This document shows positions 3,410 to 42,816 of a stretch of 64,000 nucleotides of DNA, piece after piece. Each line of letters opens with the position of its first letter. Within the stretch, counting starts at the first letter, position 1. The translations under genes and the position numbers were made by a program. The DNA is from Obrimoposthia wandeli (taxonomy: Eukaryota), in the NCBI GenBank assembly GCA_977020255.1, contig CDROCS010003621.1:434001-498000 (forward strand), in the 5' to 3' direction. Under the pieces are notes generated by a model that was not told the origin of the DNA, searched no databases, and was given only the letters and a program-made list of their open reading frames with translations.

Positions 3410-4030
3410 ATAAATACAATGACCATAAGCCACACTCTGATTCTTCCCAATTCAGTTCCGCTTATTATCAATATTACTGAGCGCGTTTTTGGAGGATATT
3501 ATTGTAAACAGCTGATGATTTATTGATTGAATACTCTGCTGCTGCACACGTTAGCTTACCCCCGTCTCATATACTTAGCGATAATTCACGTGTTTTATGC
3601 AAATCTGATTCAAGCTCACCCCTTTTGCTCTCATGGATTCGGAGTCATTTGTATCAATCATGCTATATGACTTAGGACATAGAAATATGCATTCCTTAAA
3701 TACTCCCACACTCTCATCCTTAAATTTCCCTATAGCAGTGTTCGCCAAGGTGTAAAGGGGAAGTTGTTGCGGAAACTTTGAAGTATCAAGGAGAAGTTCT
3801 TCTAACATAGCCGGTAATAACTCGTTGGGAACATCAACATTTCTACATTTTAAGAAGAAAATATCGGTATCCCCAGCAAGTATTCGGATATCGCAATCAA
3901 ATTGTCTTCTATACTTTTCTAACTCTACATATTGCAACTTATACATGCGTAACTTACTGAGGTCTAAAACAGCCTGCCTATATAGCTAGGCCGATTCAAG
4001 AAGATGACTTCTTTATTTAACAATACAGCT
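3410..4030 (-). pseudogene. Polinton pPolB C-terminal relic
   Basis: LNRPSYIG..VLDLSKLRMYKLQYVELEKYR...AGDTD...IGKFKDES...CPKSYS...MRAKGV...AYGH; colinear with the pPolB C-terminus at 34600-35218. Confidence 0.9.
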
Positions 4031-4251: not shown

Positions 4252-5269
4252 ATTAAAAATATTAGAGTGTTGGAATAATGTTTATAGGACAAAAACAGTT
4301 ACTTAAAATATTTTATTAAACACACATTAAACACTATAAACAATAAAAAATTGTCTCCCAGGATATGCTCTTCTTCTGCTAAACGTTCCCTTGTTTCCTT
4401 TGACTGTGGCCCAGGATGAGACGTCCAACAGCCTTGTTATGAATTACTCTTCTTACATACTCGTTGAGAGTAGATCCGTTGCTTCGATGAGTCTCAAAGC
4501 ATCTTTTTCTATAAGATTTTTGGAGATGAAAGTATCCACTGATTTGTCAACATCTTGTTTGAAATAATTGTGAGTAGACATAATAATGAAGTAAGAATAA
4601 AAAATTGATATGTTTATATAATAAACAGCTAAAATTTGATTGGATACTGATTAACCAAGACAATGAGTCACAAAGAAACTAACTAACAAAGACTTTGACT
4701 CATAAATAAAAAAATAAATATTACACATCTTTAAGATAATGACTAAAAATAGGCATTTGATTAAACATAGTTTCCCTAGGAGCAGCAATATTACGTTTAG
4801 TTTTAACAAAATTGGAAGCAACAGAATCGCCTATTAAAAGAGATACAATGCAATAACAATGCAAACAACATGTAAATTACCATAATGACCACATATTAAA
4901 ACCTTGCCACCATTTTTGATAGTTTCTTTAATTATATTATTAGTATGTTTATAATATTTCATTATTATTTCTTCTTATTTTGAGTTTACAAAGATAAAAG
5001 TAAACTTCAATTTTTTTATAAAACATTTTATCAGTAGGTGGATGTTTCCAGTTTAATCCACTTCCCCCTAGGAGGCAAGAGGGTACCTCTGTCTTTAAGT
5101 AAACAGGAATCCATATTGACCCCATCACTATTAACTTGTCGTAGATTAGATTTTAGATGATAATTTTGTATGAATAAATGACTTGTTAGAAAGATAAAAA
5201 TATGTGGTTCAGATTCATATATTTTTAAGCAACAATTAATTTCAATATATTTAACAAAAAATCAAATAT

Positions 5270-5420
5270 AAAACAATATATTAGCTTCACTCAAAGTCCA
5301 AAGAGGTTGTACTTTTTCATCGGTATCAGTATGTTCAGTATCTTCATCTAAATTTGGAGCAATCAAATAACCTAGGTCATCAATAAAAGACAGACTGGGA
5401 TCATTTTAAATCTTAAAAAA
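5270..5420 (-). pseudogene. Relic of the Polinton right-end ORF (homolog of 41660-42064)
   Basis: Reverse complement reads DPSLSFIDDLGYLIAPNLDE...VQPLWTLSEAN vs DPSLDFKDDLGYLIAPILDE...MQPLWTLSEAN. Confidence 0.85.
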
Positions 5421-5489
5421 ATTTCCTTCACTCTACTTTATGTTCAACTAAAAGTAACAAATCGAGATAGTACTAATTTAGCAAAAAAT

Positions 5490-5929
5490 ACAGATGTAGC
5501 ACCTGTTAATTACTTCTTTAATTATTTATTTTATTATGCCATTGCTACTCTTAATAATGTTAAAATTGAAGGTGGAAATTCTTTATATGCTCATAAAGCT
5601 TTGATTGGAAGTATATTAAAGTATAGTACAGATTTCGAAGGTAACGCTTAAACCCTAGCTTATACCCAATATATTATTCGAAATTAGGTAAAACTAAATA
5701 AAAATAAAAACAATGGTATTTCTGTCATTAGGTTTAAAATCAGATGTCCGTTCTTCATATTTTTTTGCAAACATACTTTGATATAAACAAATGTCAACTA
5801 CCAGAAGATGGAAATTTACGAATAGAAATTAAATATAATGCAGCTTTAACAAATACTAATACAGTGATTATTTATGGAGTATTTGATTGGGAAATACAAA
5901 TCAACAAAAACAAAACATTCATATTGTAG
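5490..5929 (+). pseudogene. Polinton major capsid protein fragments (middle piece and C-terminus)
   Basis: AIATLNNVKIEGGNSLYAHKALIG matches the MCP near 36000. GNLRIEIKYNAALTNTNTVIIYGVFDWEIQINKNK is a typical Polinton MCP C-terminus. Confidence 0.85.
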
Positions 5930-5967
5930 AATGAAGTTAAAAAATTAAAATAATACATATTAATATA

Positions 5968-6153
5968 AATAACAGGTCTGTGATGCCCTTAGATGTCCGG
6001 GGTCGCACGTGCGCTACGATTGCTGTATCAGCGAGTATTCGATCCTAGCTAGAAATGGCCGAGTAACCTGCTAAAAACTACCGTATCAGGAATTTGAGAT
6101 TGCAATTTTTCCACATGAACGAGGAATCCCTAGAAGTGGCAAGTCATTAGCTT
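5968..6153 (+). pseudogene. Degenerate 18S rRNA fragment (3' half)
   Basis: aataacaggtctgtgatgcccttagatgtccgggg...gattgcaattttt...catgaacgaggaat.cctag.ag are universal 18S segments; only about 185 nt, with substitutions. Confidence 0.9.
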
Positions 6154-7599
6154 TTAGCTCTCAGCCTCTCTTCAATTACCAGTACTGGTTCCTGCATTAA
6201 AAAAAATCTAACATTTTAAAAATATATAAAAATTGTATGTATGTGGCTCTTCGGGTCACCGCGGGGCTTCATATGTCCCTCTCCGGCATTTGAGTAATCT
6301 GTGAGTACACATGAGATTTTCAGTTTTAAGAGGTCTTAAATGGGGTTAATTAGTATTTTATGGTGGTGGGTGGGATTTGAAAACACTTTTATACATTACT
6401 TTATATAATTTAAAAAGTACTATATAGGGATTTAGTGGTAGTGGTATGGTACAGTCGGTACACTTGCGGACAAATCGGGGAATTTCAGAAACTAAATGGT
6501 AAGACAAGAATCATGGGGACCCGCTTAAAATCGCTCTTGATGAAATTCAAGTTTCCTATGCGCCTTATCTTCGAATTTCAGTTCACCACTTTGACCACTG
6601 TACCATCCACCGCCAGAAAACTGCTCTTGTGCAGTTGAAAGGTATATATAGGTCTCAGGACATGTATATATTTTTATACACCCACATGAACGAAATTTCA
6701 CTCCACACACATTCACGGTTTAAATGACAGTGGTAACCCCCAGGGGAATGGATTAGACCGGACACATCCACCTACTGACCTTTATTATGATCCTATGTTT
6801 CTTAATTTTTTTCTTTTTGATGTTAAAAATTTCTGTATTTTTTTATTATTTCCCATCACAATATATATTTGGCCAACCTATAAATATTAGTCATTAATAA
6901 ATTTAATTTAATTTGTTTGTCCATTTCTAGACCTTAACAAAACCAATGTTTGGTCACAGGAGGCCTATGTAGAACGTTGGAAATGGATTATAGAGTAAAC
7001 GTTTGGGTTTGATCAGGTGAAAAAATGAAAGAAGATAATACTAATTGTCATGTTCTTTCAAAACAGAAAAGTATTTTCATATTATGGTATCATATTATAC
7101 TATAATATCATTTTCATATTATAGTCACGTGATTTTATTGATTCACATGACCTCCAATGAACTTCAAAAGAGAAGATTTTTAAATCTTTTAGTTTATTTT
7201 AGAAAAAAGGACTGTATACTCCAGATAAACAGTTAAGATAAGTACAGATAAATATTTTAGGACAATTACAAAACTTTGAGAGATGACACAGTCAACTTAC
7301 TGACATGTCTAAACTGGATCAATGCATTTTGGTAGGGTAACTTTAATGTCAATGATACTGAAAGATCTGGAGTGTGCTCCATTATGATGTTGGTAGTGAA
7401 ATTTAAGACTTTAAGCGAAAATAGGCACGCCACAAGTAGGTAATTGTCAGCAGAGCTACATGTCAATCACAACACTGTATAAAGGCATAAAACAATCGAT
7501 TGTGAAGAGTTGTTAAAAGAGCTGAACAGCAATCCTATTTTGAGTCAGTTAATTTCTGTTTATTACTTTTCATGAAGAGGTTATCAGAAAGCATGAAGA

Positions 7600-27119: not shown

Positions 27120-27680
27120 AGTAGGTGGATGTGTCCGGTCTAATCCACACCCCCCTCCCCCCCTTGTCCTTTAAAACCGTGCATGTGTGTGGAGTGAAAT
27201 TTCGTGTAGGTGTGTGGAGTGAAATTTCACTCCACACACATGCACGGTTTTAAAGGACAAGGGGGGGGTACCCCCCTAACATTTTTTCGCGCCTTTCGGC
27301 GCGAAGGGCTCGGGACCGACATTGGTCACAGATATACGGATATCTCGTTCTCATATAGGTCACAGACTAGCTTGGCGATGTACGGATGTCTCGCTCTCAC
27401 ACCACACCACACCACTCCACACCACACCACGCCACGCCACACCACACCACACCACACCACACCACACCACACCACGCCACACCACACCACCGAAACACTC
27501 CACCCTCCGCCCGCCCCTTCGGGCGGGCTCTATTCTCACGAAAATAACTACAAAACATGCGCTACAGTATCACTTTACCTCTCACAACTACAAATGTAAA
27601 CGACCCGTGTCATACCCTAACATATACCACCCGCCCCTTCGGGGCGGGCTTCATTTTTGATCTACAGGCACAAAAAACAT
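27120..27680 (+). repeat. Left TIR (internal palindrome, 46-bp repeats, CACCA microsatellite, GC hairpins)
   Basis: Reverse complement of 42134-42816, with few substitutions. Confidence 0.95.
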
Positions 27681-27770
27681 TACAAAAATTATTTGAATAA
27701 GAGGCTCTCATTGGACAATAAAAGAGGGTTAGTACGATGTTTGTGTATATAAATTTTTCATAAATCAACA

Positions 27771-29120
27771 ATGCCATTCTACAACAACGTTGACCTAGAC
27801 GAAGAGACGGATGTTCAACTCTATGGGGATCTCTCTCCAGTGCAGCAGCGAACGCCACCACCCTCGCAATACATTGACTTAGATAGTCAAGAGTCATCGG
27901 TGGTGAGCGAAGGAGAAGCAGCAGCAAGAGCGAACCTGTTGGAAGCCTTATTGGCCAGCTCAACTCCAAGAGAAGAACCAATGAACGTGAGAGGTGGGGT
28001 ACAGAGATCCCAATATATCGATCTGACTAGTCAGGATTCGATAGAGAATTGGGAAGACTGTACTCCCAGACAAAACACAAAACCCAAGCGTCCGGCAACT
28101 TCAGCAGTAGCAGCAGGGAGATCCAATCTCTTCGATAATTTTGAGGCGGCAATCAAATGCCCCTGGAAATTGATCCCGCTGTCTCAACCGGAGAAAGTCC
28201 TCGCACCAGACTCAGACGAGGAGCTGTTCACCAATGATGTACCTTCGGATTGGGAGGAGGACTTGACTCCATTCATCGACGAATGGATACAGCCAAGTAT
28301 CGGAGCCCCTGAAGCCAACGAGTCGATGGTAGCAGAATTGGACGAGGACGAGTGGCACCTGTTCACCGACGATTGGGATGGTCTCACTCCCTCTGCTACT
28401 CCGAAAGCAGATAATACAATGCCTGAACCATTCAAAAGGCCAAAATCTCCTGTTAGGAGAATAAAACCGACGAATGAGGTTAGACATCATTTATTTTAAA
28501 TGTTTTTTAATTTCATTTTCAGAAACTTCAACTGGATATGGCACCGTCAGTGACCATGGTGGAGAGGCTAATTGAACCGCAGTACTTGGCGAGTCAATGC
28601 AGCCAGGAGCTGCCAAGGAGTCAGCTCCGATACCTAGCGTCTCCAGATAATTTTAAGGTAAATTATTTAGATATTTAATTTAATAATTCACATAGATGGA
28701 GAACATTCACGAAGAGGCGACGTCTATTCAACCGGTGGATAGGAAGCAAGCGGCAGTTAAGAAACCGCAACGCCATCGGGTCAAAACCCTCACGCGGAAG
28801 AAGGCCAAGTTGGTGAAACAGGCTAACCTGCCCATCATTGAGGTAAATTATTTATATGTTTAAATTTTATTAATATTTTGCAGGAACCCGTCCAGATATT
28901 TAAGGAGACTTGGGGAGAAGTTACTCCTTTCTCGCGGAAACGGACGAAGAGGGCAGAGGTGAAGAAGACGAGGCGCTCGAGAAAATGTAAAACCTCAATT
29001 GTTCATTATTCTGAGACGGTGATTGGCCAGCAGGAGTCCGCCCTCAAGTCAACGACGCCTGCAGGAGACTGCTTCTCCTCGTCCAACAACCAGCCAGAAC
29101 TTGAAGAGGGCCTGGGATGA
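27771..29120 (+). CDS. Spliced 408-aa acidic/basic low-complexity protein; join(27771-28478,28523-28657,28696-28842,28884-29120)
   Basis: Three phase-0 GT-AG AT-rich introns (44, 38, 41 nt). Exons of 708, 135, 147 and 237 nt are all open in one frame. Confidence 0.8.
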
Positions 29121-29505
29121 CGCTGGATTGGATGAATTCCTGGCGGAACTGGATTCACCGGCAATGCTTCCAGATTCGCGTGGGCAACATGATGCCGTCT
29201 CACGCCAGCTTCAGCGTGAGAAGGAGGAGAAACAGAAGAAAGCTCCACGGAAGAGGACTTCTACGTCGGAACCATCAACATCGGCTGCACCTCCTCCCAA
29301 AACGTTGCGGCAACTTTTGCCAAAACCTGAGGGAAGGACAATTGCTACAAAGCAACCGGTGAAGCTGAAAAAGAAACCGGGCCGGCCAAAGAAGAAGGAA
29401 CCAGTACCGCTTTCTCCTATAATACTTAGTCGGAGGGATTACGACCCGAATGATCCCAATGATGACTTCGTAAAGATGTTTAAAAATATAATTTATAAAC
29501 ATTAG
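29023..29505 (+). CDS. Basic Pro/Lys-rich ORF with AT-hook-like KKPGRPKKK; either the frameshifted true C-terminus of the previous gene or a separate ORF from ATG 29164
   Basis: GC-rich open frame overlapping exon 4 of the preceding gene. Confidence 0.55.
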   Translation: MASRSPPSSQRRLQETASPRPTTSQNLKRAWDDAGLDEFLAELDSPAMLPDSRGQHDAVSRQLQREKEEKQKKAPRKRTSTSEPSTSAAPPPKTLRQLLPKPEGRTIATKQPVKLKKKPGRPKKKEPVPLSPIILSRRDYDPNDPNDDFVKMFKNIIYKH

Positions 29506-29699
29506 TTTCATATGTTTTCTTCTTAATATTTATTTTTTTAAATGTAGAAATACTATCTTTAAGTTTATTTGCAATGATAAGTTATAGATTTATTAAACAC
29601 TCATTTGATAAATAAAAATATATCATTTAATTGGATTAAAAAATATCTTTAATTTATATATATAGGTTCAAATTTATTAACCTTTTCATAATTAAAAAA

Positions 29700-30029
29700 A
29701 TGGAATTCATTAATATGAAGAGTCTGGTGACGACGATTGAAGCAAACATCAGAATAAATGAGAAGAAAGGGGACTTAAGAAAGAGGGTTCTCAATCAAAA
29801 TTTGTATACTGCTGTCGCGACCGAGTGGAATCATCGGGTGGAGATACAGGATAGGAGGCTAGCAGAACGCCGTCGAATCGTGGAGTGGAATAAGAAGATC
29901 GAATTGGAAAAAAGGAAGGTGGATGAAAAAAGAAGAGAAGAGATGGAGGATGTTCGGCGAGCAGCAAGAAAGAGAATCCTCCAGATTAAACCGGAAGAGG
30001 GTCCTTCCACAAAAAAATTAATTTTATAG
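29700..30029 (+). CDS. 109-aa charged coiled-coil protein with LRKRVLNQN (SERTA-like) motif
   Basis: ATG ORF preceded by ATTGG and TATA; SERTA resemblance is weak. Confidence 0.6.
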   Translation: MEFINMKSLVTTIEANIRINEKKGDLRKRVLNQNLYTAVATEWNHRVEIQDRRLAERRRIVEWNKKIELEKRKVDEKRREEMEDVRRAARKRILQIKPEEGPSTKKLIL

Positions 30030-30153
30030 ATTATTATTTTGTCTTCATTGATTATGTTATAAATTGTCTAAATACTACCTCGTCATTTTAATAAATTTTT
30101 GATTAATAGTTTTTCGTTATAAACAACGGGATTTGCTACAGATTTGGGTAATT

Positions 30154-30641
30154 ATGCAGGAATATATCATAGATTTTGAGGCTTTCATTAACAAAATGGG
30201 GATTATATTATAAAAGAATTATGTATTATGGATGTATGCGACGTTTTTCATCCTTTGCATTTCATATTTCATATAGATATCCCATTTAAAAGTTTTTATT
30301 ATAAGAAAAAATTTACTAATTTATATCTAACTAAATATTTCCATTTATTAAAATGGAAAGAAGGACATAAGGCTTTTTGTGAAATATGTATTTTCGATAC
30401 TATTAAATTTAATTTTGAAATTGAAAATGGAATTTTTTATGTTTTAGATGACATGGATGGCAAAAAATATATGACTTTAAAAAAATATTTTCTTAAATTG
30501 AGGTTGAATACTTTAAATATTTCACGTGATCATCTATTAAAAATTCCACGAAATATTTGCTGTCCATATCGTAATCATGGTGACCATTGCGCATATAAAA
30601 AATGTTTAAGTCTTTCTTATTATTACTTGACATGTAGATAA
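30154..30641 (+). pseudogene. Small DEDD/DnaQ-like nuclease-fold protein with C-terminal Cys/His cluster (1-nt frameshift near 30195)
   Basis: MQEYIIDFEAF..(N)GDYIIKELCIMD...H...W..G...CCPYRNHGDHCAYKKC. Confidence 0.55.
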
Positions 30642-30841
30642 ACAATTCTTCTAATTCATAAATTTCATTCAATTACAATTAAATCTTTTGATTGGAGGAA
30701 TAAAAAAATATTTTTTTCGACCATTTAACAGATAAACAAACCTTCTCAATTTTTTAATCCAATAGGAAAAGAGCATGTGTGCATAAATTTTAGTATATAA
30801 GCAAACACTTTCTTCATTTAAATCCCCGACAATTTGAAATA

Positions 30842-33800
30842 ATGCCTATGGTAAGAATTTATTTTTATTATTTCCTTATTAATATTTATTATTTCAGATT
30901 ACTTGTAACCTATTCCCTGCGTATTGTGGTGCTTCGGCTCCACATGGAGGAGAGACCTGCATGGAGACAATGTCTGCATACTACCGGACAAAGTCTCGCG
31001 GGCTTCACTTCTTTGTCTGCCCCTTCTGCAGAACAATGGAAAAGAAGGAGTTTCGAGACTTCTTCAGTGAACATCGAGCTCATCTATCGTGTTTCACGGC
31101 CAACAACAAGAAGAGGGATATCATGCAATTGGTGCGCGATTCACAGGTCGCTCCACCTCCAATTCCAGTTGCAGTCGATCAACCCTTTTACGGTCCTGCG
31201 ATTGGTCTCCCGGCTCCTGATTCTGACCCATCCACTCAAATGTCTAACAATGAGTGGATGAATGACATATCCCAGTCAGATTTCGAGATAGAGCAGTGGA
31301 GCGATAACTCATGGTTGGAGACCATCGAGGAATCCGATTTTGTCGAGATGTCGGACGATAGCTGGATGGATTTCGTCAATGAAGAGGACTTCATTCCAGC
31401 TCAACTTGGATTGCCTTCATTAGGTATTTTTTATTATTATTTTTAAATTATATATTTTATTTTTATTATATATTTTTTATTTTTTGTTTTTTATACAGGA
31501 AGTACCATGATACAGCCGTCATCCGATAGGACAGCTATGCCTCCCCCATCTCGAGTGCCTACATCGATGTTAGCACGCCTTAGAGGTAATTTTTAAAAAT
31601 ATATTTATTTTTTAATATATTTATTTCAGCAGCACTAACCTCTACAACAGCCGCTTCTTCATCGGCAAGGTCAGCTTCAAATGCAGCCTCTACATCTGCG
31701 GCAGCATCTATTCCAGCAGCATCGTCTACACCAGCTGCGATTGCCTCAACATCGGCAGCATGTCCAATGGCAGCACCTTCAACCTCAGCTGCGATTGTGT
31801 CAACTATTAATATAAATAGTTGTCTTCCCGTTCAATTAGGGGGAGGTTTGTCAGCGACAAACGGAAGAAAGAGGCGAGGCCAATTTCTTAATAAGGTCCC
31901 ACCCAAAAAACGTAGAGAAAACGGTGCTACTATAGAGTATCACCTAAATAATAAATATGTTATAGTTAAGGTGCCATTAGGAAATGAAATTTTATTAAAC
32001 GTAGGTGTAGATTCAAATATTGAAAATCTTTTAAAATCAGAAGTGACTAAATTAGGACAGGCTAAGGTTCAATTTTGCGCAACAGTGCAGTTTAAAAATG
32101 TCAATGAGGAAACTAAAACTTGGGTAATTTCACATAAAGCAACTGTTTTTTATGATAATTTTGTAACTGAAATTGGAAGAAACCTGGATGAAAAAATTGC
32201 TAATTATAGCGAGTTAAGTAGTGGATGGACTCTAGTTAGAATTCACGATGTTAGCTTTGTTCTAACAAAGTTCACTGACATGATATATCTTTCGGGAGTT
32301 CATACATTCCTTCACCTAGATCTCTTCAACTTTCACGTTCCATTGTTAACGTACAAAACAGTGATAACCTTTGCTTTCTGTATAGCGTGTTGGCCATCCT
32401 CAAAAGGGATGTAATTACTGAGCATAGAGAGCGTGTCAGTAAATATATCCCTTTTTAAATGAATTGCAGTATCATGGAATAGATTTTCCTGTTAAATTAA
32501 CTGCGATATCAAGATTTGAACATCTTAATAACTTGAGTATTAATGTATTCAAATATAATACTGATATCCCAGTTAATGTAACAGATGAAGAAATTTTTAA
32601 AAATCCTTTTGTAGATGTAATTTATAGGAGCAAAAATGAGGGGACTCAGGTCAACTTAATTTTGCTCGAACAGAATAATAAATTCCATTATGCTGCAATT
32701 CCCAGTTTAGATCGTCTTCTAAATTTAGATAATGGAGCCTTACCGGTTAGGATAAGGTGTAAGTGGTGTCATAGATGTTTGCATGGGTTCCGATCTGAGC
32801 TCTCTTACAGCAAACATCTGACATTATGTTCACTGAATCCTGATGACAATACGCTATATAGCATGCCTAAGGATAAGGATTTAAAATTCAGGGATTGGGC
32901 AAAATGCATACCCGTGGAATTCAGGGTGTATGCAGATTTTGAGTCAATTTTAGCATTGCACGACCAGTATGAGAGTATTCACCTAACGGCTTCGGCAGGA
33001 CTACTATTCTTAGGCCCCAATATTACCCAGTATCATAAATTTTTCGGTCCAAATTGTATTTTAGATTTTATGTTAAAATTAGAAGAATTAGGAACAACAA
33101 TTGTCAAACTGTGGTATGATCTCAATGCCCATCAAGCAATGATCATGACAGGCATAGACTGGGTTAATTTTAATTCTTGTAGATTATGTTATTTGTGTGG
33201 AACCCAGTCTAAGTTAGTCAGAGATCACGATCATGTTACGGGGCGATACTTGGGAGCGGCGTGCAACCTCTGTAACCTTGGCCGTCGTCTCCCTAAAAAA
33301 CCACGCATTCCCATCGTGTTTCATAACCTCAAAGGATATGATTTGCATCATATACTTAAATACGCGTTGGGTACATTAAGCTCTTGGGAAATTTCATGTA
33401 TACCTCAAACTTCAGAGAAATATTTATCTTTAACTGCATATACTGAATTCTGCAGTTTAAGATTCATAGATTCTCTGCAGTTTTTGAGCGGGTCTTTAAA
33501 AAATTTAACGGCATCTTTAAATGCATGGCCAATTACACAGTCAGTGTTCCCAGCTTCGGTTAACGATAAGGGGATTTTTCCGTATAAATTTGCGAAAACT
33601 TTCGCAGATTTAGAAAAATACAACTAAATCCCACCCATAACTGAATTTGAGGGTGTAAGTCTTCAAGACTATAATGAGGCCCGTACATTTTGGGTGAATA
33701 ATTGTCGAAATCTTTTAGAATATATGCTTTATTATATGAAGTTAGACATTTATCTTTTAGCTGATGTTTTTGAGTCCTTTCGTGTAAAGTCTTTAGCAGA

Positions 33801-35218
33801 AGATGGGCTAGATCCCATGCATTTCTTTAGTTTACCTGGTCTTTCATGGGCAACAGCAATAAAAACTCTTAAAATTAATATCGAGTTACTGCAAGATCCG
33901 CGATGTATCAAATGTATGATTATGGTATACGCAGTTGAATGACTTTTGTCAACAAACATCATGTTGTCAAAAATCAATCCACGGAGATTCTGTACCTCGA
34001 TATTAATAATTTGTATGGGTGGGCGCTTACTCAACCTCTACCTCATGCCAACTTTAAGTGGGTTTATGATGTGGATCAGTTGAATAAGTTGATGACAGAT
34101 TTGGCTACTGTTGATACAGTTTCATCCGACGTCGGCTATTTGGTTGAGGTGGACATAAAAATCCCTCCCAATGTGCATGATAAATTAGATGATCTTCCAG
34201 TAGCGCCTGTTCATCAATGCCCACCTAATTCAAAGGTTAAGAAATTATTGTTAACCCATGAAGACAAGTTGAATTATGTTGTGCATTGGCGGCTTCTTCA
34301 ATTCTACTTAAAGTTGGGAGCGAAAGTTACTCGAATTCATCGTACTATAAGCTTCAGTCAATACTTTGTGTTTAAAGACTATATTGAGAAGAATTCAAGA
34401 AAACGTAATTTGGCCACTAGCAAATTCGATCGAGATTTTTACAAGTTAAAAAGTAATAGTCTCTTTGGAAAAACTGTAGAGGACTTGCGGAAACGTATTT
34501 GTCTACGGTTTTGCAATGATGAGCGTAAACTAATAACATATACTAGCAAGTACAACTTCAAGCGTAGTTTTACAATTGCAGATGACTTGGTAGCAGTGTT
34601 ATTAGGAAAACAGAGTATTTGTCTCGATCGACCGAGTTATATAGGTCAAACGGTTTTAGACATTTCTAAACTCAGAATGTATGAGCTTCAATACATAGAA
34701 TTGGAGAAATACCGACAAGAATTTAATTATGAGATTAAAATCACAGCTGGGACACTGACTCTTTCTTTTTAGAATGTAGGAATGTTAGTTTAAATAATCA
34801 ATTATTACCAGCAATGTTTAGGGACAACTTACTAGATACCCATAAATATCCCGCTAACCATCCTCTACACTCTATGAGTTTAAAGGACATTATCGGGAAA
34901 TTTAAGGATGAAAGCGAGGGACAGGTTTCGTATGATGATTGTATTTTCCTACGCCCTAAATGCTACAGTTTACATGCATCTAATAATACATGTTCAATGA
35001 GAGCAAAGAGTGTGGGAAGAAACAATCTTACACATGAGGCCTACCGGAAAGTTTATGATACTGGGTGTATTGAAAGCGTTGAGCAAACTAGATTTATTTC
35101 AAGAGCCCATCAACTGTATTCCCATAAATCAACAAAGATCGCTTTGAGTAGTAATGACGACAAGCGCTTTTGGGTAGAAAAGAACGCTAGCCTGGCTTAT
35201 GGACACTTCAGAATTTAA
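30842..35218 (+). pseudogene. pPolB: Protein-primed DNA polymerase B with spliced N-terminal extension; join(30842-30850,30898-31423,31499-31585,31630-...35218); several frameshifts and one in-frame stop
   Basis: SGW..., NVQNSDNLCF, ExoI VYADFES, endonuclease-VII-like CYLC...DHDHVTGRYLGAACNLCN, ExoII FHNLKGYD, KGIFPY, ExoIII LDIYLLADVFE, PolA LDINNLYG, PolB KLKSNSLFGK, PolC AG(DTDS) and PKCY. Confidence 0.95.
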
Positions 35219-35492
35219 ACGGTTTTCATTTTTTGATTTTTTTAGTTTAGTTTTTAAAAATTTAGATCCTTATGGCACTTAGACTCTAACTTATTTGTTA
35301 TTTCAATACTTTTTTAGGATGGACCTTATTTATTATGCCTTATCTTTGCTGACATATCTCATTGTGATGTTGTGATTAATAAATGTATTAAAAAAAATTG
35401 TCTTATGTCTTTTATTATTTTACCCTTATATTTTTAGAAATTTAAAAAATAATTCAAAATAAAACATTTAAATTTTTTATTTTTATAACACA

Positions 35493-36340
35493 CTAATTGT
35501 TTTGCAACGATAACCATAAAATACATAAAAATTGAAAAGAAATTAAAATGAATTTCGGTAATCTTACATCACCAAATATTTGATCCTTATTAAAAGCTTG
35601 TGTACCCGTACCTAAAGAGTAGGTTATAAGTTTAGTTTCTCTAATAGGATAACAAGCATTGTTTTTTTCCATTCCTATATTATGTCCCATTAAAACTGAT
35701 TGCTCGGTTTTAACTCTTCGGACATACAATTTTGCATCCAAAATATCAAGTCTAGGTTTTAGAATGTCCGTGCTTATCAAAGAAAAATTCCATTTATTAC
35801 GTTTCAAACGAAGATGTACATTAACACCGGGAATTAAATATTTCGGTTGTTCAAAGAAATTCAATCTCAAAGACCCACACATTTCGTAAGCTTTAGAACC
35901 TGCAATCCATTCTTTGCGAGTTGCATCAGTTTTATCATAACCAATGGTTGCCAAATTAGTATTTTGAGTATCAGTACTATAATTCAAAAGACTTTCAATC
36001 AAAGCTTTATGAGCATAGGAAGAATTTCCACCTTCAATTTTGACATTATTAAGAGTAACAATGGCATCACTAAATAAAGAATTAAATAGATAATTTATAA
36101 GTGTTACATCGGCATTTTCATCTAAATTAGTACCATCCCGATTTAATACTTTTATTTGAACATAAAGCAAAGTATCATTCAAATCTAAATACTCGCTATT
36201 GGAACCATTAATATTAAATCGGTTAAAGTGGTTCCTGAAACTGAGTTAACAAGGAATATTTCTTCAAAGGAAGCATTATCTACAACTACTTGTGGAAGCG
36301 GTTTATCAAAAATACATAATTCAGTTTTGGCGCAACTCAT
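35493..36340 (-). pseudogene. Major capsid protein (double jelly-roll), frameshift near 36215, C-terminus missing
   Basis: ATG at 36340 overlaps the upstream TGA; MSCAKTELCIFDKP...YLDLNDTLLYVQ...LFNSLFSD...KYLIPGV..L.L.R...YPIRETK; ends prematurely after LPKFILIS. Confidence 0.9.
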
Positions 36341-36714
36341 TTTGCAAATATTGTTCCTTCAACTTTCTTACGTTTGTTTATATTAATTTTTAGCTTCTTT
36401 TTACTTTTAAATCCACTACCTCCTTGGCTTTTATTTGATTTACGTTTTCTAATCAAATTAGCAACTTCAGGTAAAACATTATCAAGTTCATCAAGCGCAT
36501 GCTTCTTAAAAGTTGGTATTAGTTTATTGTCATTAGATGAAAGGTAATCCTTTCCTAATTTTGATATAAATCGCCCGAGTCTCTTTAAAAGAGGAAAGGC
36601 AAATCTACCTAATGTTCTAAGCCAGCCAGATCCGTATTGTTTACCAACAAAATATGGTAATTCTCCACCTTGTTGGCTTTGACTATAAGCTTCAATTATT
36701 GCTGGATTCGCCAT
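36337..36714 (-). CDS. Conserved Polinton virion-associated protein (QQGG/QYGSG motifs, amphipathic helix, basic tail)
   Basis: QQGGELPYFVGKQYGSGWLRTLGRFAFPLLK; lies between the minor and major capsid genes. Confidence 0.75.
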   Translation of the reverse strand: MANPAIIEAYSQSQQGGELPYFVGKQYGSGWLRTLGRFAFPLLKRLGRFISKLGKDYLSSNDNKLIPTFKKHALDELDNVLPEVANLIRKRKSNKSQGGSGFKSKKKLKININKRKKVEGTIFAK

Positions 36715-37749
36715 TTTGTTTTCTTAAATGTATTGTTAAACTTGTCTTGGCCCCGTACGTGAAATCTATTAGTTGTCCGGAATCATCTCTAATATTTACT
36801 TCAATATTGTTTATAGAAAAGAGAGAAACTGGAAGATATATTGGTTGATCTATACACATACCGACAGTGTCCCCATCTCTAGTTTCATTTTTAGATATCC
36901 ATATTGTTCTCAAAAGTGGAACTCGCTGTCCTCCTACAAGCGTTGGTCCTATTAAATTAGTATAAATATATAAATGATTAACAGCATTTAAAAGTTTTGC
37001 CTTATTTTTAGCTTTAATGGTTTTTATTGTATGGGTTTCAAAGGTATTTCTGTTTAAACCAAGGTTTTTAGCGAGTTTATCATCAAATGAAACTCGTTTT
37101 ATATTGCTCTTTACTGTAAACGTTAATTTACCATTTAATGTTTCACATTTATCCAAATATTCACTACATTCCTTCTGTATTAATTTACAGAAATTCACTT
37201 CACTATCTATTTTATAATCTTTTGAAAACGTTTTCAGTTCCACTACAGTCTTTGGTCTCGTTTCAAGTAACAACACTTTTGCTACTCTACCAGGAACATT
37301 TCTAACCGAATTAGATGAGATAATATCCCGTTTATTACGAGCTACTGTTTGTTCACTATCAAAACTGAATTGAAGAGCTTCTTTTTTAGATTCAAAATTA
37401 ATTTTAATAACTTGAAGAAATTTTAATCGATTTTTAAATCTGACTTTGTTATTTTCAAATATTACTTTCACTTCTTTATCTATACAATTGTAATAGAATT
37501 GTCCTTTACTATCAAACCCGATCACAACTTCAGTTGTTTTTTCATGATCAACTTCTTTTGTAAACGAAATATGTGAGTTTTTTTGATAGTAATTGGAGAA
37601 TAATAAAAAGAAAATTCTGTTAAAGCCGCTTCCCATTCTCCTTGGAGATTTATAGAATTTTCCCAATCGATAATAAAGCTACTAGCGTCATTATCTGGTT
37701 GAGTCTTCGGACATCCGTTACTTGGTAAAACCATATAGATAGAATTCAT
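36692..37749 (-). pseudogene. Minor capsid (penton-like) protein, one frameshift near 37600
   Basis: N-terminal YMVLPSN...P.N..SSF...L.GEWEAALTEF; C-terminal LYIYTNLI...VGGQRVPLLRTI...YLPV...IEVNIRDDSG..IDF...LTIHLR. Confidence 0.88.
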
Positions 37750-38827
37750 ATTATATTATATGCTGATATCCAAGTTGGGTTTGAATAACCATGCCATTTA
37801 ACAAAGTATTGTTTATGTTTACCTGTACCCTTAGATTTTAATATTTTTTGAATACGGAAAACGCTAGGTTTATTTGATATTACTTGTAGTTCTTGCTCGT
37901 AAAATTTACCGTGAACGATATTATTGTCAGCATCTTTAATAGTATACATTATTGGATTACTCTTTTGATCAATTTTACTTATACAAAATATTTCATCGCT
38001 CCAATTCTGATCAAAGTTTTTAATAAATGGAGTAGAGCTAATTTTCGAAATTCGAACATATTCGTTTTTCTTATATTTAGCTTTTTTAATTTTATCTTTT
38101 TTATTCCTGTTCATCCAAATGTCCATAGAGTTTTTATTAGTAACATCAACAGGTCTCATTCCCTTGAGACCTCTATGTTCAGAGAGATTATATGCATGTA
38201 TTATTTTAGGTAAAACTTGGATCCATTTTTTATTTCCTTCTTTTGTGAAATACTTTTTATTCGATCTCTTAGAGTACGATTAAATCTTTCTACTACTGCT
38301 GCTTTGTATTGTGAAAACACAGAGTAATGATTTATATTATTTTGTTTAAATAATGATTGAACTTGCTTATTATAAAATTCTTTTCCTAAATCAGTTTGCA
38401 CATTTTGTGGAATGTCCTCTTTTAATATTTCTTTAATGGCTTCAAGCATAGCTATCGAAGACTTTGCTTTAACTGGAATTGCACGAGAAAACCTGCTAAA
38501 TACATCAATACATGTTAAAATATATCGATATCCCTTATTAATGGAAGAATATGGGATCATCTCCATCAAATCCATTTGCCATAAATTATTAGGACCGCTG
38601 GTTTTGTAAGCTCTAGTTGGAAACCTTCTTCTCATCAGCTTGTTCAGACTGTAGGCTAACTGATCGCTCAGCCATTTCTGCGTTTTCTTGTAATTTTGTT
38701 TTGTTCTTTTTGTTAATTTTGAAACTCCTGTGTAGCCAATTGGATCTTTTGGATTGAACCATATCTTATCCATTACAACAATTTGAATAGAAAGAAAATT
38801 TAAGTTTAGGTAAAGAAGGGCTAGCAC
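37746..38827 (-). pseudogene. Retroviral-like (rve) integrase with C-terminal chromodomain, frameshift near 38200
   Basis: WQMDL, CIDVFSRF, VQTDLGKEF, VERFNRTL (DDE); KQYFVKWHGYS..TWI chromodomain. Likely start ATG at 38773. Confidence 0.95.
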
Positions 38828-38859
38828 CCATATCTTTAGCTGATTTTAGAAATAATTGT

Positions 38860-39189
38860 TTATGAACGTGTCGCAGCTATAATACTACTGATAATTGAAG
38901 CAACAACTGGAATAACAGCCCCTATGAAACCACCATTCTGTTTAAGAATAATATTTCGTTTCCTTTTTTTACTTTTTACATTAGCAATATCTAGAAGAGT
39001 TTTTCTATATTTCTTTAATATATTTTTCCGATTTCCAACTTTTACTCGACCCAAAACTATATTATATAAAACTTCCAATAAATCATCTACAACAAAGGAT
39101 GGGAATGCTTTAAGAATAATCATTCTCTTATTAGAAGAGGCTTTGACTAAAGCTTTAAAATAGGGCATGCTTCTTTGTATTTTCTTCAT
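38860..39189 (-). CDS. Conserved Polinton protein with QNGGF site and hydrophobic/amphipathic C-terminal tail
   Basis: ...EVLYNIVLG...KQNGGFIGAVIPVVASIISSII. Confidence 0.75.
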   Translation of the reverse strand: MKKIQRSMPYFKALVKASSNKRMIILKAFPSFVVDDLLEVLYNIVLGRVKVGNRKNILKKYRKTLLDIANVKSKKRKRNIILKQNGGFIGAVIPVVASIISSIIAATRS

Positions 39190-39220
39190 TTTAATAAAAA
39201 GGGTTTAATTTAAATATTGT

Positions 39221-39361
39221 TTATATTCGAAGCCATTTAAGTTTTTTTTTATTTTTCACTACAGATTTGATTAATTTTTTCACTTCTTTTTTCTTAATGA
39301 TTCTTTTTTTTGATTTCTTAGATTTTACTTTACGTTTTACTATCAACTTTGTAAAAGGCAT
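39221..39361 (-). CDS. 46-aa lysine-rich microprotein (putative DNA-condensing core protein)
   Basis: MPFTKLIVKRKVKSKKSKKRIIKKKEVKKLIKSVVKNKKKLKWLRI*; starts 8 nt after the ATPase stop; below the ORF-track cutoff. Confidence 0.6.
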   Translation of the reverse strand: MPFTKLIVKRKVKSKKSKKRIIKKKEVKKLIKSVVKNKKKLKWLRI

Positions 39362-39368
39362 TGCGAAT

Positions 39369-40003
39369 TTATTTTTTATAATTGTTCTCTATTTGTTTAT
39401 AAACAGTTACTCCCTTAGAATTAAATATGTCTGTTAAAACACGTAAATCATCTGGGCAAGCTTGTGTAAAGTCAATAAATATATACCCATGTGCTTGTTT
39501 AGCAGCATCATGGAATGAATCAACTAGAAAGTTCTTATTTTGAGGAAATGCCTGTCTGGCCACAAAATCAACAACTGTTTGATCTCTAGGATTTTTAAAT
39601 AAAACTAAGTAATGTACATTAAGATTTCTTGTTCTATGGTGACCTCCTTGGTGAAACAGATTTTGAGTGATAAATATAACTGTAACTTCACGATGTCTTG
39701 CAATCTTTGTAAATAAATTATTAAAGTCCGATTCCTTGTTAGCCTCCTCATACAAATCATCAATTATTATTACATCTTCTTTTTTCAATCTTTCACACCA
39801 ATTTGCATCAAATCCTTCAATAAATTTTATACCCTTCAACTTGCAAACTTCTGTTTTGGTTAACCCGCTTTCCCTCCTCCACCATGATGCCAATATATTT
39901 TTGAAACTAGATTTGTTCATTGCAACAATTTACAGACGAAATGTGTCTTTCCACTTCCACTTGGGCCAACTATTTGAAATACAGCATTATTATTTAGCTC
40001 CAT
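39369..40003 (-). pseudogene. A32/FtsK-like packaging ATPase, frameshift near 39920
   Basis: MELNNNAVFQIVGPSGSGKT (Walker A), VIIIDDL (Walker B), ARHREVTVIFITQNLF, NVHYLVLFKNPRD. Confidence 0.95.
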
Positions 40004-40040
40004 TGCATATACTCTTTCATTTTTAATATTGTTTATATTA

Positions 40041-40843
40041 TCATTGAAGTTTCCTTATTGAAATGTACAATGTTAGAGCTATTGTAGATGAAATACAAAA
40101 ATTAATTAATGAATATTTGGCTATAATTTTATTTATTTGTGTACGATTTCTAAATTCTCGAATAACGTGTGATCTAACCAATATTTCAATGTTATCTCTT
40201 GTTATATCATTATTTTTTAATTCTGATAAAATTTCTTTACCCCTAATTTTTCCAGAAAATATTTCATCGGCAAGCCGATCCACTTCATTGTCTCTATTTA
40301 TAGTATTATTCATTTGAAACAATAAGTTTAAACGGGTTTGTTTATAGAAAAAAGATAACAAGATGTAATAAGATATATTTTCTAAAATCAAATCAACTAT
40401 GTCTGGATAATCAAAATTTTTCAATCCCAATATCATAACTTTACCACTGGAAAATATATTTACACATAGCGGTTTAAACTTCAAATAACTGAGAGCAGGA
40501 AAAATTTCTGGTTCAAACATGCATTCTTCTTTCATTTTCTCTGCAGTTTTAAAAAGATTTATCTGTTTCCCGAGATTAGCCGAAATCGTGATTGATTGTA
40601 TTGCAGTGATTTGAATTCCAAATGGTAAATTGAACCTAAGCATTGGTATTTTGCATTCCATAACACGACAATTTCCTAAAGAATTCAATATGAAAATAAA
40701 ATAAAAAACTAACCTGTAGGAAAAATAACAACTGTGAAATTGTCAAACTTTTCTACATATTGTCTCGGCTTCCATTCATTGAATGGTAAGTACGAAACAT
40801 CATCTTCTGTTCTACCTTTATAATTTATATTTACGAGTTTCAT
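40041..40843 (-). CDS. TATA-binding-protein-like protein; complement join(40041-40675,40714-40843); C-terminal extension with hydrophobic tail
   Basis: After removing a 38-nt GT-AG intron: MKLVNINYKG...TVVIFPTGNCRVM...IQSITISANLGKQINL...MFEPEIFPALSY...VNIFSSGKVMILGLK, i.e. two TBP repeats. Confidence 0.85.
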
Positions 40844-40859
40844 TAGACTGAAATTGTAT

Positions 40860-41030
40860 TCTGTAAAATTTTCTTTTTATATGTCTGAACCTGCTTTTTT
40901 ATTGCACGTTTCTTGTAATTATCTTGCAAACCTATTATAATTGGATGATATATTTAGTCCAATCAAATTCAATGCTTTTGTTATATTAACCAATGAGATT
41001 CATGTTTTTGTTAGAAATTAGTATAAAAGA
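40860..41030. promoter_or_regulatory. Divergent CCAAT/TATA promoter region between the TBP-like gene and the right-end genes
   Basis: Minus TATAAAA at 40875-40881; plus TATAAAA at 41022-41028; CCAAT/ATTGG at 40940, 40959 and 40990. Confidence 0.5.
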
Positions 41031-41059
41031 ATGCATCATTGGAGGACAAATCACAGTAA

Positions 41060-41536
41060 ATGCATTCATATCAAAGACAATTATCAACAATGGACGATAG
41101 CCAACGGGTATTAAGCGATGACGAAGAAATGTTTGAAGAATCGGATAAGGATATGTATGAAGAAGTGAAACAATATTTCAAATACAAAGTCAGATTCTTG
41201 AAGAAGGCTCAACTGATTGCTTTAGTAAATCCTGTGACAATTGAAAGAAGAAAGTTCAGCTACTATCTATCAGGTATTCAAAAACCTGATTTTCAATATC
41301 TTAAACAGAAAATAGAAAAGGCAGTTCCGAATTTTACTTTCAATAAGAACGAATTTTATATCCGAGGAGCCGATGAAGCATTTCTAGATGACTATGGAAG
41401 ATATGTTGATATTGATGCGTTTCCGAAAAAGAAGCAATGGACTGTAACAATTCGACTTTATGGTTACAAGAAAGATGAAATGGGAACAAAGTTGCCTATG
41501 TGGAAAATTGAACGTGCTCATATTCCTATGTTTTAA
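41060..41536 (+). CDS. 158-aa hypothetical protein, paralog A
   Basis: Intact ATG ORF; aligns with 41660-42064. Confidence 0.8.
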   Translation: MHSYQRQLSTMDDSQRVLSDDEEMFEESDKDMYEEVKQYFKYKVRFLKKAQLIALVNPVTIERRKFSYYLSGIQKPDFQYLKQKIEKAVPNFTFNKNEFYIRGADEAFLDDYGRYVDIDAFPKKKQWTVTIRLYGYKKDEMGTKLPMWKIERAHIPMF

Positions 41537-41659
41537 CTTTTTGCGTGTAATAAATTGTAATCGGTTTTACTATGTTTCTTTCATTTAATAATCAGTTTTA
41601 TTTGTATCTTATGTGTATTTTTTATAAACATTGTTTTTAATCAGTTTCCTTATTTTAAA

Positions 41660-42064
41660 ATGGATAAAAGATATGTAGCAAATTTTTATTATCCAGAAAG
41701 AATTTCAAAAGGAAAACTGTGTAATATATTAAAGAGGCATCAAATTATACGAGTTATGAATCCTGTGAAAATATCAAAAGTGGAGAAAAAATATCTCATC
41801 GAAATTTTAACAACAACTGATTTTGATCAACTGAAAAATATTTTGGGATTTTACATTCCTGATTATGTATATGAAGGAAATTGTTTCGAGCTTGAAACTG
41901 ATCCCAGTCTGGATTTTAAAGATGATCTAGGATATTTGATTGCTCCAATTCTAGATGAAGAACTATGGAATATCTCAATACGTCTGAATGGATATTTTGC
42001 TGATGACGGGACAATGCAGCCTCTCTGGACTTTGAGTGAAGCCAATATGTTGTTTTATGTTTAA
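41660..42064 (+). CDS. 134-aa hypothetical protein, paralog B
   Basis: Intact ATG ORF; homolog also in the relic at 5270-5420. Confidence 0.8.
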   Translation: MDKRYVANFYYPERISKGKLCNILKRHQIIRVMNPVKISKVEKKYLIEILTTTDFDQLKNILGFYIPDYVYEGNCFELETDPSLDFKDDLGYLIAPILDEELWNISIRLNGYFADDGTMQPLWTLSEANMLFYV

Positions 42065-42133
42065 TAAATATTTTGAAAAATAATTTTGTCTCGTATTTTG
42101 TTTTTGCTCCTCTAAATTATATAGATCTGACCG

Positions 42134-42816
42134 ATGTTTTTCGTGCCTGTAGATTAAGAATGAAGCCCGCCCCGAAGGGGCGGGCAGAGNNNNNNNNNNN
42201 NNNNNNNNNNNNNNNNNNNNNNNNNNNNNNNNNNNNNNNNNNNNNNNNNNNNNNNNNNNNNNNNNNNNNNNNNNNNNNNNNNNNNNNNNNNNNNNNNNNN
42301 NNNNNNNNNNNNNNNNNNNNNNNNNNNNNNNNNNNNNNNNNNNNNNNNNNNNNNNNNNNNNNNNNNNNNNNNNNNNNNNNNNNNNNNNNNNNNNNNNNNN
42401 NNNNNNNNNNNNNNNNNNNNNNNNNNNNNNNNNNNNNNNNNNNNNNNNNNNNNNNNNNNNNNNNNNNNNNNNNNNNNNNNNNNNNNNNNNNNNNNNNNNN
42501 NNNNNGTACATCGCCAAGCTAGTCTGTGACCTATATGAGAGCGAGATATCCGTACATCGGCAAGCTAGTCTGTGACCTATATGAGAACGATATATCCGTA
42601 CATCTGTGACCAATGTCGGTCCCGAGCCCTTCGCGCCGACAGGCGCGAAAAATGTGTAGGGGGGTACCCTCCCCCGTTGTCCTTTAAAACCGTGCATGTG
42701 TGTGGAGTGAAATTTCACTCCACACACCTACACGAAATTTCACTCCACACACATGCACGGTTTTAAAGGACAAGGGGGGAGGGGGATGTGGATTAGACCG
42801 GACACATCCACCTACT
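42134..42816 (-). repeat. Right TIR (contains assembly gap 42190-42505)
   Basis: Inverted copy of the left TIR; the gap falls where the CACCA microsatellite is expected. Confidence 0.95.

Follow-up and report, generated by a model that had tools for sequence, protein, structure and literature searches.

Predicted mini-introns and an uncatalogued Cys/His domain at the 5' end of a Polinton polymerase gene of Obrimoposthia wandeli

The window analyzed here is a stretch of 64,000 nucleotides (nt) from Obrimoposthia wandeli (GenBank assembly GCA_977020255.1, contig CDROCS010003621.1, positions 434,001 to 498,000 of the forward strand). It contains a Polinton/Maverick element, and the subject of this work is the 5' end of the element's gene for a family B DNA polymerase that is primed by protein (pPolB). 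The element is 15.7 kb long, is bounded by terminal inverted repeats (TIRs) whose ends read AGTAGG and not (AGT)2, and carries the 6-bp target-site duplication (TSD) ACACAG on both sides. The polymerase family PF03175 was found above the Pfam cut-off in two pieces of the broken gene, and a retrovirus-like integrase (rve, PF00665, E 3e-13) is also encoded. An EndoVII/HNH insert in the polymerase and a protein resembling the TATA-binding protein (TBP) both scored above their cut-offs. The candidate packaging ATPase (PF04665, E 0.014) stayed below its cut-off, the match of a pX-like open reading frame (ORF) was likewise weak, and the ORFs which we take, by familiar motifs and position, to encode capsid proteins gave no Pfam match above cut-off. 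The candidate gene for an adenain/Ulp1-type protease is mostly missing from the window copy; a protease-like ORF was present in all six sister copies covering this place, with a match to PF00770 of only E 0.02-0.03, below the cut-off. The window copy is dead: its pPolB frame is broken near 32.3 kb and at three more places downstream, so the full protein cannot be made from it. The genome of 1.35 Gb harbors very many Polinton copies (first-look candidates numbered 3,190 for the region's DNA and 21,839 for its protein, which are not copy numbers) and at least five Polinton families, here called A to E with the window's element in family A; some open pPolB frames reach about 1,250 amino acids (aa). 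The features needed for what follows are listed below, with guanine-cytosine (GC) contents as fractions.

27120..42816, no strand: Polinton/Maverick element with TIRs, 6-bp TSD ACACAG, and pPolB and rve above the Pfam cut-off
30794..30801, + strand: TATA box, putative promoter element, 57 nt 5' of the first donor
30842..30850, + strand: predicted exon 1, coding part, ATG CCT ATG (Met-Pro-Met)
30851..30897, + strand: predicted intron 1, 47 nt, phase 0, GC 0.13, GT..AG
30898..31423, + strand: predicted exon 2, GC 0.48
30904..31110, + strand: Cys/His domain with C3, C10, H16 and C21, then CPxC-x14-HxxH-LxxF and a basic helix
31246..31392, + strand: acidic Trp repeats, three in number, with the pattern W-[ML]-x-x-[IV]-x-[QE]-[SE]-D-F, family A only
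31424..31498, + strand: predicted intron 2, 75 nt, phase 1, GC 0.05, GT..AG, family A only
31499..31585, + strand: predicted exon 3, 87 nt, GC 0.53
31586..31629, + strand: predicted intron 3, 44 nt, phase 1, GC 0.07, GT..AG, family A only
31630..31832, + strand: Ala/Ser/Thr/Pro linker containing the poorly conserved ATG 31767
31833..31847, + strand: QLGGG, candidate viral-protease site, kept in family A and not in most other families
31866..31916, + strand: two basic clusters, RKRR and PPKKRR
31920..32288, + strand: terminal-protein (TP, D1) domain, assigned by model, fold searches and alignment
32289..35218, + strand: rest of pPolB in several broken pieces, with vOTU-like part, HNH/EndoVII insert, exonuclease and polymerase

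The initial annotation had proposed that three mini-introns and a 9-nt coding start add 253 aa in frame to pPolB, and all of its coordinates proved correct by frame and composition. The joined frame from ATG 30842 is open for 759 nt, or 253 codons, before ATG 31767 and continues into the TP domain; the GC content is 0.44-0.53 in the first three exons versus 0.05-0.13 in the predicted introns. When both strands of the element were scanned blindly for GT..AG segments that are rich in AT and lie between flanks of higher GC content, 10 candidates were returned, and all three introns were among them with identical ends. Neither AATAAA nor ATTAAA occurs between 30701 and 31949. The frame of exon 2 meets a stop inside intron 1 and has its first Met only at residue 22, and for this reason the conserved ligands C3, C10, H16 and C21 are translatable only after splicing. 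ATG 30961 was accordingly rejected as the sole start, as these four ligands would be lost, and a 139-aa ORF reading through intron 1 (30842-31261) was rejected as a gene, the ratio of nonsynonymous to synonymous polymorphism (pN/pS) in that frame being 2.6. The nine nucleotides stand as the coding part and probably not as the whole of exon 1: judged by the distance of 57 nt from the TATA box to the first donor, the exon is likely somewhat longer and would include about 20 nt of 5' untranslated region (UTR). In families A and B the TATA box is followed 20-22 nt further by the motif TTCATT (window 30794-30819; upstream regions of L073-L090), a spacing shorter than the usual distance from TATA box to initiator; other families keep the TATA box and not TTCATT.

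For a comparison within family A, 117 of 122 fetched copies could be aligned to the window, five being excluded for too little overlap. At the splice sites, the dinucleotides are intact in 107-112 of 111-116 copies (about 95% or more). For intron 1 these are GT in 112 and AG in 111 of 116 copies, for introns 2 and 3 the donors and acceptors in 107-110 of 111-113. Since the copies are 85-99% alike, this retention alone is weak evidence. Length variants, grouped into classes shared by at least three copies, say more, although the relatedness of the copies leaves the classes not fully independent of each other: all eight exon classes are multiples of three (+90 and +93; +6; and -42, +6, +12, +60 and +72, the last five in the linker), against two of 14 intron classes (Fisher p 1.4e-4). 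ATG 30842 is kept in 110 of 116 copies and the second ATG, codon 3, in 111 of 116, while codon 2 is variable; ATG 31767 was found in only 39 of 105. Selection was assessed by the numbers of synonymous to nonsynonymous substitutions, shared between copies versus singletons. A synonymous excess among the shared changes was seen in the Cys/His domain (27:32 versus 18:73, p 0.001; pN/pS 0.21 shared versus 1.04 in singletons), in the acidic repeats (21:34 versus 19:98, p 0.003) and in exon 3 (13:19 versus 8:40, p 0.02). Four read runs of unknown kind covered TIRs and introns evenly and behaved as DNA from one sample; none of the predicted junctions was among the joints listed for the left part of the locus, a result that speaks neither for nor against splicing. 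The three introns are very probably spliced and the leader thereby fused to TP and pPolB. The proposal of a spliced module fused to TP/pPolB is thus supported by the selection pattern in the 117 copies and by intron-free fusions in other families and species, its splicing part being read from sequence.

Among the family-A copies L164-L208 the Cys/His domain (30898-31110) is mostly 80-97% identical versus mostly 92-100% for TP (31920-32288). The changes in the domain cluster in its hairpin, in a sample that was selected by the domain. This greater divergence may reflect mosaic exchange or faster evolution.

Families B to E were brought in by searches with a divergent remnant and with homologues from outside the genome, and 70 of the 80 loci examined, those of family A included, have the Cys/His domain. 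Compared with the window, these families show 25-37% identity in the domain and 30-36% in TP. At 41 of the 70 loci an AT-rich phase-0 intron precedes the domain with an in-frame ATG just before the donor: 12 belong to family A, 18 have ATG directly before GT (families B and C) and 11 have ATG AAT AAC before GT (family D). At a further 11 loci, those of family E, the intron has no preceding ATG and the start codon lies 3' of it. The first intron measures 38-65 nt in nearly all loci with 9, 3 or 0 coding bases before it, and a TATA-like box stands 48-58 nt 5' of the donor in families A-D. In families B-E the domain runs through an Ala/Ser/Thr/Pro/Val linker into TP in one open frame with no further introns. 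Among the families examined, only family A showed introns 2 and 3 and the acidic repeats. As the first intron is common to distant families and these other elements are confined to one, the first intron appears old, and introns 2 and 3 together with the repeats would have been gained later, inside the linker, in family A. The core ancestral unit in these Polintons would then consist of Cys/His domain, low-complexity linker and TP.

The Cys/His domain had been annotated as a putative zinc finger of the form CPFC-x13-HRAHLSC. Zinc binding is indeed probable; the spacing is x14, and the motif forms no more than the latter half of a larger domain, in which four further conserved ligands (C3, C10, H16 and C21) lie upstream of CPFC. 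A search with exon 2 against 1.84 billion representatives yielded 27 homologues, all matching within the first 112 residues or fewer; the ten homologue clusters looked up are unnamed ENA proteins. Across 18 aligned members there is no variation at C41, P42, C44, F55, H59, H62 and L63 and hardly any at C21 and F66; most full-length members also have C3, C10 and H16. The eight candidate ligands likely form two zinc sites. For twelve of the 27 homologues the match falls into two or three separate stretches, and classical C2H2 fingers are present as well in two of 13 scanned, both being traits of DNA-binding arrays. In the homologues P0004 and P0014 one ORF leads from the domain into a TP-like domain, and P0028 is a single-ORF pPolB of 1,286 aa starting with the Cys/His domain; in P0018 and P0029 the ORF with the domain lacks TP. 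The window's domain gave no match to any Pfam family. The classical C2H2 model PF00096 matched none of the 18 aligned members, from which it differs in the HxxH spacing and the four extra upstream ligands. Word-index protein searches gave no match, the ESM Atlas no usable one (only unnamed or weak C2H2-like clusters at 0.87-0.90), and the PDB sequence search only Dph3/Kti11 at E 0.05 or worse. No homologue was found in viral contigs and phage records, and one metagenome locus (L209) was dropped as a chance match in bacterial-looking DNA. The AlphaFold model, with a mean predicted local distance difference test score (pLDDT) of 72 and about 50 over residues 1-20, shows a helix, a hairpin, the CPxC knuckle and two helices. 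Fold searches against PDB, BFVD and VIA-align gave nothing at E <= 0.001 (best Z 3.1), which does not imply a new fold. We favor DNA, most likely the element's own, as the ligand, since the domain has a constant position ahead of TP, to which a flexible tether joins it, occurs in tandem arrays and together with C2H2 fingers, and has a basic helix following HxxH; binding of RNA or protein instead is conceivable.

The model of 31920-32288 (pLDDT 81) fits the D1 terminal-protein domain with its little-finger/PAD fold: in VIA-align the top six rows are Y-family polymerases (best Z 8.1, root-mean-square deviation 2.7, 95 aligned), and in BFVD the best match is an adintovirus protein (template modelling score 0.76, E 8e-6). 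An invariant Ser-x-Trp lies between the last helix and the last strand. Its serine is likely the residue linking protein to DNA, which has been placed at the corresponding position of D1 (PMC11071308). Downstream, DNLCF and FHY were recognized by eye in separate broken pieces as candidate motifs for the catalytic Cys and His of a vOTU domain.

In front of TP, the acidic repeats number three in the window copy and four in many sisters; a 39-aa tile has a net charge of -15 and eight W/F/Y/L residues. Such an acidic and aromatic composition is typical of activation domains and of RPA70N- or TBP-binding motifs. The clusters RKRR and PPKKRR may form a nuclear localization signal. As for QLGGG, 106 of 107 family-A copies retain both Q and L, and 91-100 of 106 the glycines; Q-x-G-G or Q-x-G-x-G occurs also in two small basic proteins of the element. 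GG-like variants are LVGG in family B (by eye), QVGFG in L136, QIGG in P0013 and QSGAG in P0014.

We read the locus, with good confidence, as the spliced 5' end of a Polinton pPolB gene, in which three predicted host-style mini-introns interrupt a leader of zinc domain, repeats and linker before TP. RNA polymerase II would in all probability initiate just 3' of the TATA box and the spliceosome take out the introns, and the resulting protein would consist of zinc domain, acidic repeats, flexible linker and TP-polymerase. Tentatively, the zinc domain could tether the TP-polymerase to the terminal repeats or to element promoters, and the acidic repeats could, on an equally provisional view, recruit a host factor in the manner of activation domains. 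That the element's protease cuts off the leader at QLGGG is a somewhat more doubtful step. Several observations weigh against this reading or parts of it. In the family-A copies the synonymous excess was not significant in the linker (p 0.49) and marginal, not significant, in TP (p 0.07), and because many loci had been retrieved through their similarity to the zinc domain, the conservation of this domain is overestimated. At 18 of the 70 loci the automatic rule found no first intron; seven of them show one by eye, the rest not all having been inspected, and in eight aligned family-B copies (seven of them among the 18) donor and acceptor are kept in 8/8 and the ATG in 5/8. No match of fold or family hints at the ligand of the zinc domain, whose model is weak over residues 1-20 and whose zinc geometry is predicted. 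Finally, none of the 39 open linkers in other families contains the Trp repeats or the GG cleavage pattern. The adenain-type cleavage proposed initially is thus favored by the conservation of Q and L and by the protease-like gene of the sisters and disfavored by these linkers; cleavage at QLGGG may be possible, and not as a general feature.

One could instead regard zinc domain and acidic repeats as a separate small activator gene that ends in intron 2, with pPolB starting at ATG 31767 or nearby. Translation continuing into intron 2 would indeed end at the stop 31444-31446, leaving a compact protein of zinc domain and acidic repeats, and the two homologues without TP in the same ORF would suit such a gene. 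We nevertheless judge it improbable: the proposed start is missing from most copies, all shared variants in exon 3 and in the part of the linker 5' of that start preserve the frame, the splice sites of introns 2 and 3 are kept, and other families fuse the domain directly to TP. Moreover, a search for stand-alone zinc-plus-acidic genes gave only family-A leaders, with TP following in 41 of 45. A short isoform made by intron retention might exist besides the fusion. That the AT-rich segments are chance insertions or decay, nothing being spliced, would agree with a window copy broken at several places, but is extremely improbable in view of the intact segment ends in nearly all sister copies and of the counterparts of intron 1 in families with about 30% protein identity.

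In adenovirus, the first three residues of pTP and Pol come from a tiny exon, a detail not found in the literature searched, and the initial annotation had taken the 9-nt start for an adenovirus-like expression strategy. The likeness to E2B is that a very short upstream coding exon supplies the start codon of a protein-priming replication gene. It does not extend to the gene structure: in adenovirus, pTP and Pol are separate genes with separate mRNAs, to which shared 5' exons are spliced (PMC11304566), whereas here an intron of about 45 nt precedes one fused gene, the only acceptor seen for exon 1 is the adjacent one, and zinc domain, TP and pPolB share one open frame in sister families and in P0028. 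The analogy is weakened further because distant families keep the first intron with differing coding lengths before it, namely three residues in families A and D, one in B and C and none in E. Mini-introns of the same kind occur in two other genes of the element and in a host gene. Inheritance of the E2B strategy, with one ATG exon serving several downstream frames, could appeal to the exactly three codons of families A and D and to the homology of adenoviral TP with Polinton D1 (PMC11071308); it is very improbable, given the single TP-Pol gene, the uniformly short intron with no second acceptor or gene apparent, and the one or no codon in B, C and E. Phase-0 introns right after the start codon are, besides, common in eukaryotes (PMC1626468), and core genes of vertebrate and nematode Mavericks are reported to be intronless, an observation that speaks against deep inheritance. 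The pattern is more simply accounted for by host-style introns. The adenovirus likeness is probably convergence, and the first intron of the Polinton gene would be an ordinary start-proximal intron and not one derived from the adenoviral leader exon.

The closest known systems are the TP(D1)-vOTU(D2)-exonuclease-polymerase proteins of Krupovic et al. (PMC11071308) and the Alpha adintovirus PolB of Starrett et al. (PMC8502044), with which the element shares PF03175, the little-finger/PAD fold of D1, a TIR-bounded element with 6-bp TSD, the rve integrase and Ser-Gly at the linking position. The accessible text of PMC11071308 describes only two globular N-terminal domains; here a further domain and a long linker precede D1, and introns are predicted in a core gene. 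Vertebrate and nematode Mavericks have the core gene set and two convergent gene modules in common with the present element. However, intact vertebrate Mavericks are described as free of introns (PMC8097293) and nematode ones as intronless in the core genes with introns in cargo genes (bioRxiv 10.1101/2022.07.12.499685), whereas here mini-introns are predicted in the polymerase itself, in the TBP-like gene and in an accessory gene. The start-codon introns of Nielsen and Wernersson (PMC1626468) are phase-0 introns directly after ATG, as they are here as well, except that the intron follows codon 3 in families A (a second ATG) and D (Asn) and lies in the 5' UTR in family E. Spliceosomal-type introns have likewise been described in Maverick/Polinton-like elements of dinoflagellates (PMC11957031); those are mostly recent introner insertions that followed integration, whereas the first intron here is common to distant, once-active families. 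In the accessible text of the literature searched, which also included PMC10748475, PMC12220804, PMC11296320, 10.64898/2026.10.13.758929, 10.1101/2025.04.19.649669, PMC3370646 and PMC7070027, there is no description of spliceosomal introns or of this Cys/His domain in a Polinton pPolB, though the supplementary maps of PMC8502044, RepBase and subscription papers could show such leaders.

The outcome is a real and very probably spliced leader, with an uncatalogued conserved domain and predicted introns, on a Polinton polymerase. In hosts with mini-introns, annotation of Polinton core genes as intron-free would miss the true N-terminus of pPolB, and with it a conserved domain named in no library searched. 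The domain touches two open questions, namely by what means the TP-polymerase of Polintons locates its origin and what switches the element on, and family A offers a case of intron gain (introns 2 and 3) in a viral-type core gene beside an older intron kept across families. It is conceivable, if unlikely, that widespread animal Polintons carry here a third N-terminal module, with two zinc sites, which recognizes their own ends or promoters, joined in family A by an acidic activator and release by the protease. An origin-binding factor and an E1A-like switch would in that case lie inside the polymerase precursor, and splicing of the first intron would act as a gate for replication.

Further predicted mini-introns were noted in the element. 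Its first gene, an accessory gene (27771-29505, + strand), has three of phase 0 (28479-28522, 28658-28695 and 28843-28883) and encodes acidic Trp-rich segments of its own followed by basic stretches; the frame of its last exon is disrupted in the window copy. The TBP-like gene (40041-40905, - strand; PF00352, E 2e-11) has a predicted 38-nt intron (40676-40713) and a homologue with 47% identity in family D (L161); one figure legend of PMC8502044 also bears a TBP label. Conserved TATA promoters together with a TBP encoded by the Polinton suggest that the element directs its own transcription. A host RPA70 gene possesses a 38-nt AT-rich intron of the same type as those of the leader. Introns interrupt the coding sequence of its N-terminal domain and likewise that of the TBP-like protein of the element.

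Immediately 5' of pPolB lies a Cys/His-containing ORF (30192-30641, + strand) without a Pfam match, which occupies the same place in family B with 31-39% identity. Just inside both TIRs are near-perfect hairpin arms of 47-50 nt (27157-27267 and 42667-42783). Elsewhere in the window, 5033-6776 is a short Polinton derivative with an internal deletion, AGTAGG ends and pieces resembling capsid and right-end genes, and 3575-3946 (- strand) is a pPolB remnant of family B, for which 1,812 first-look candidates were counted genome-wide. An intact ORF of 616 aa at 61443-63293 (+ strand) resembles a transposase of the hAT family.

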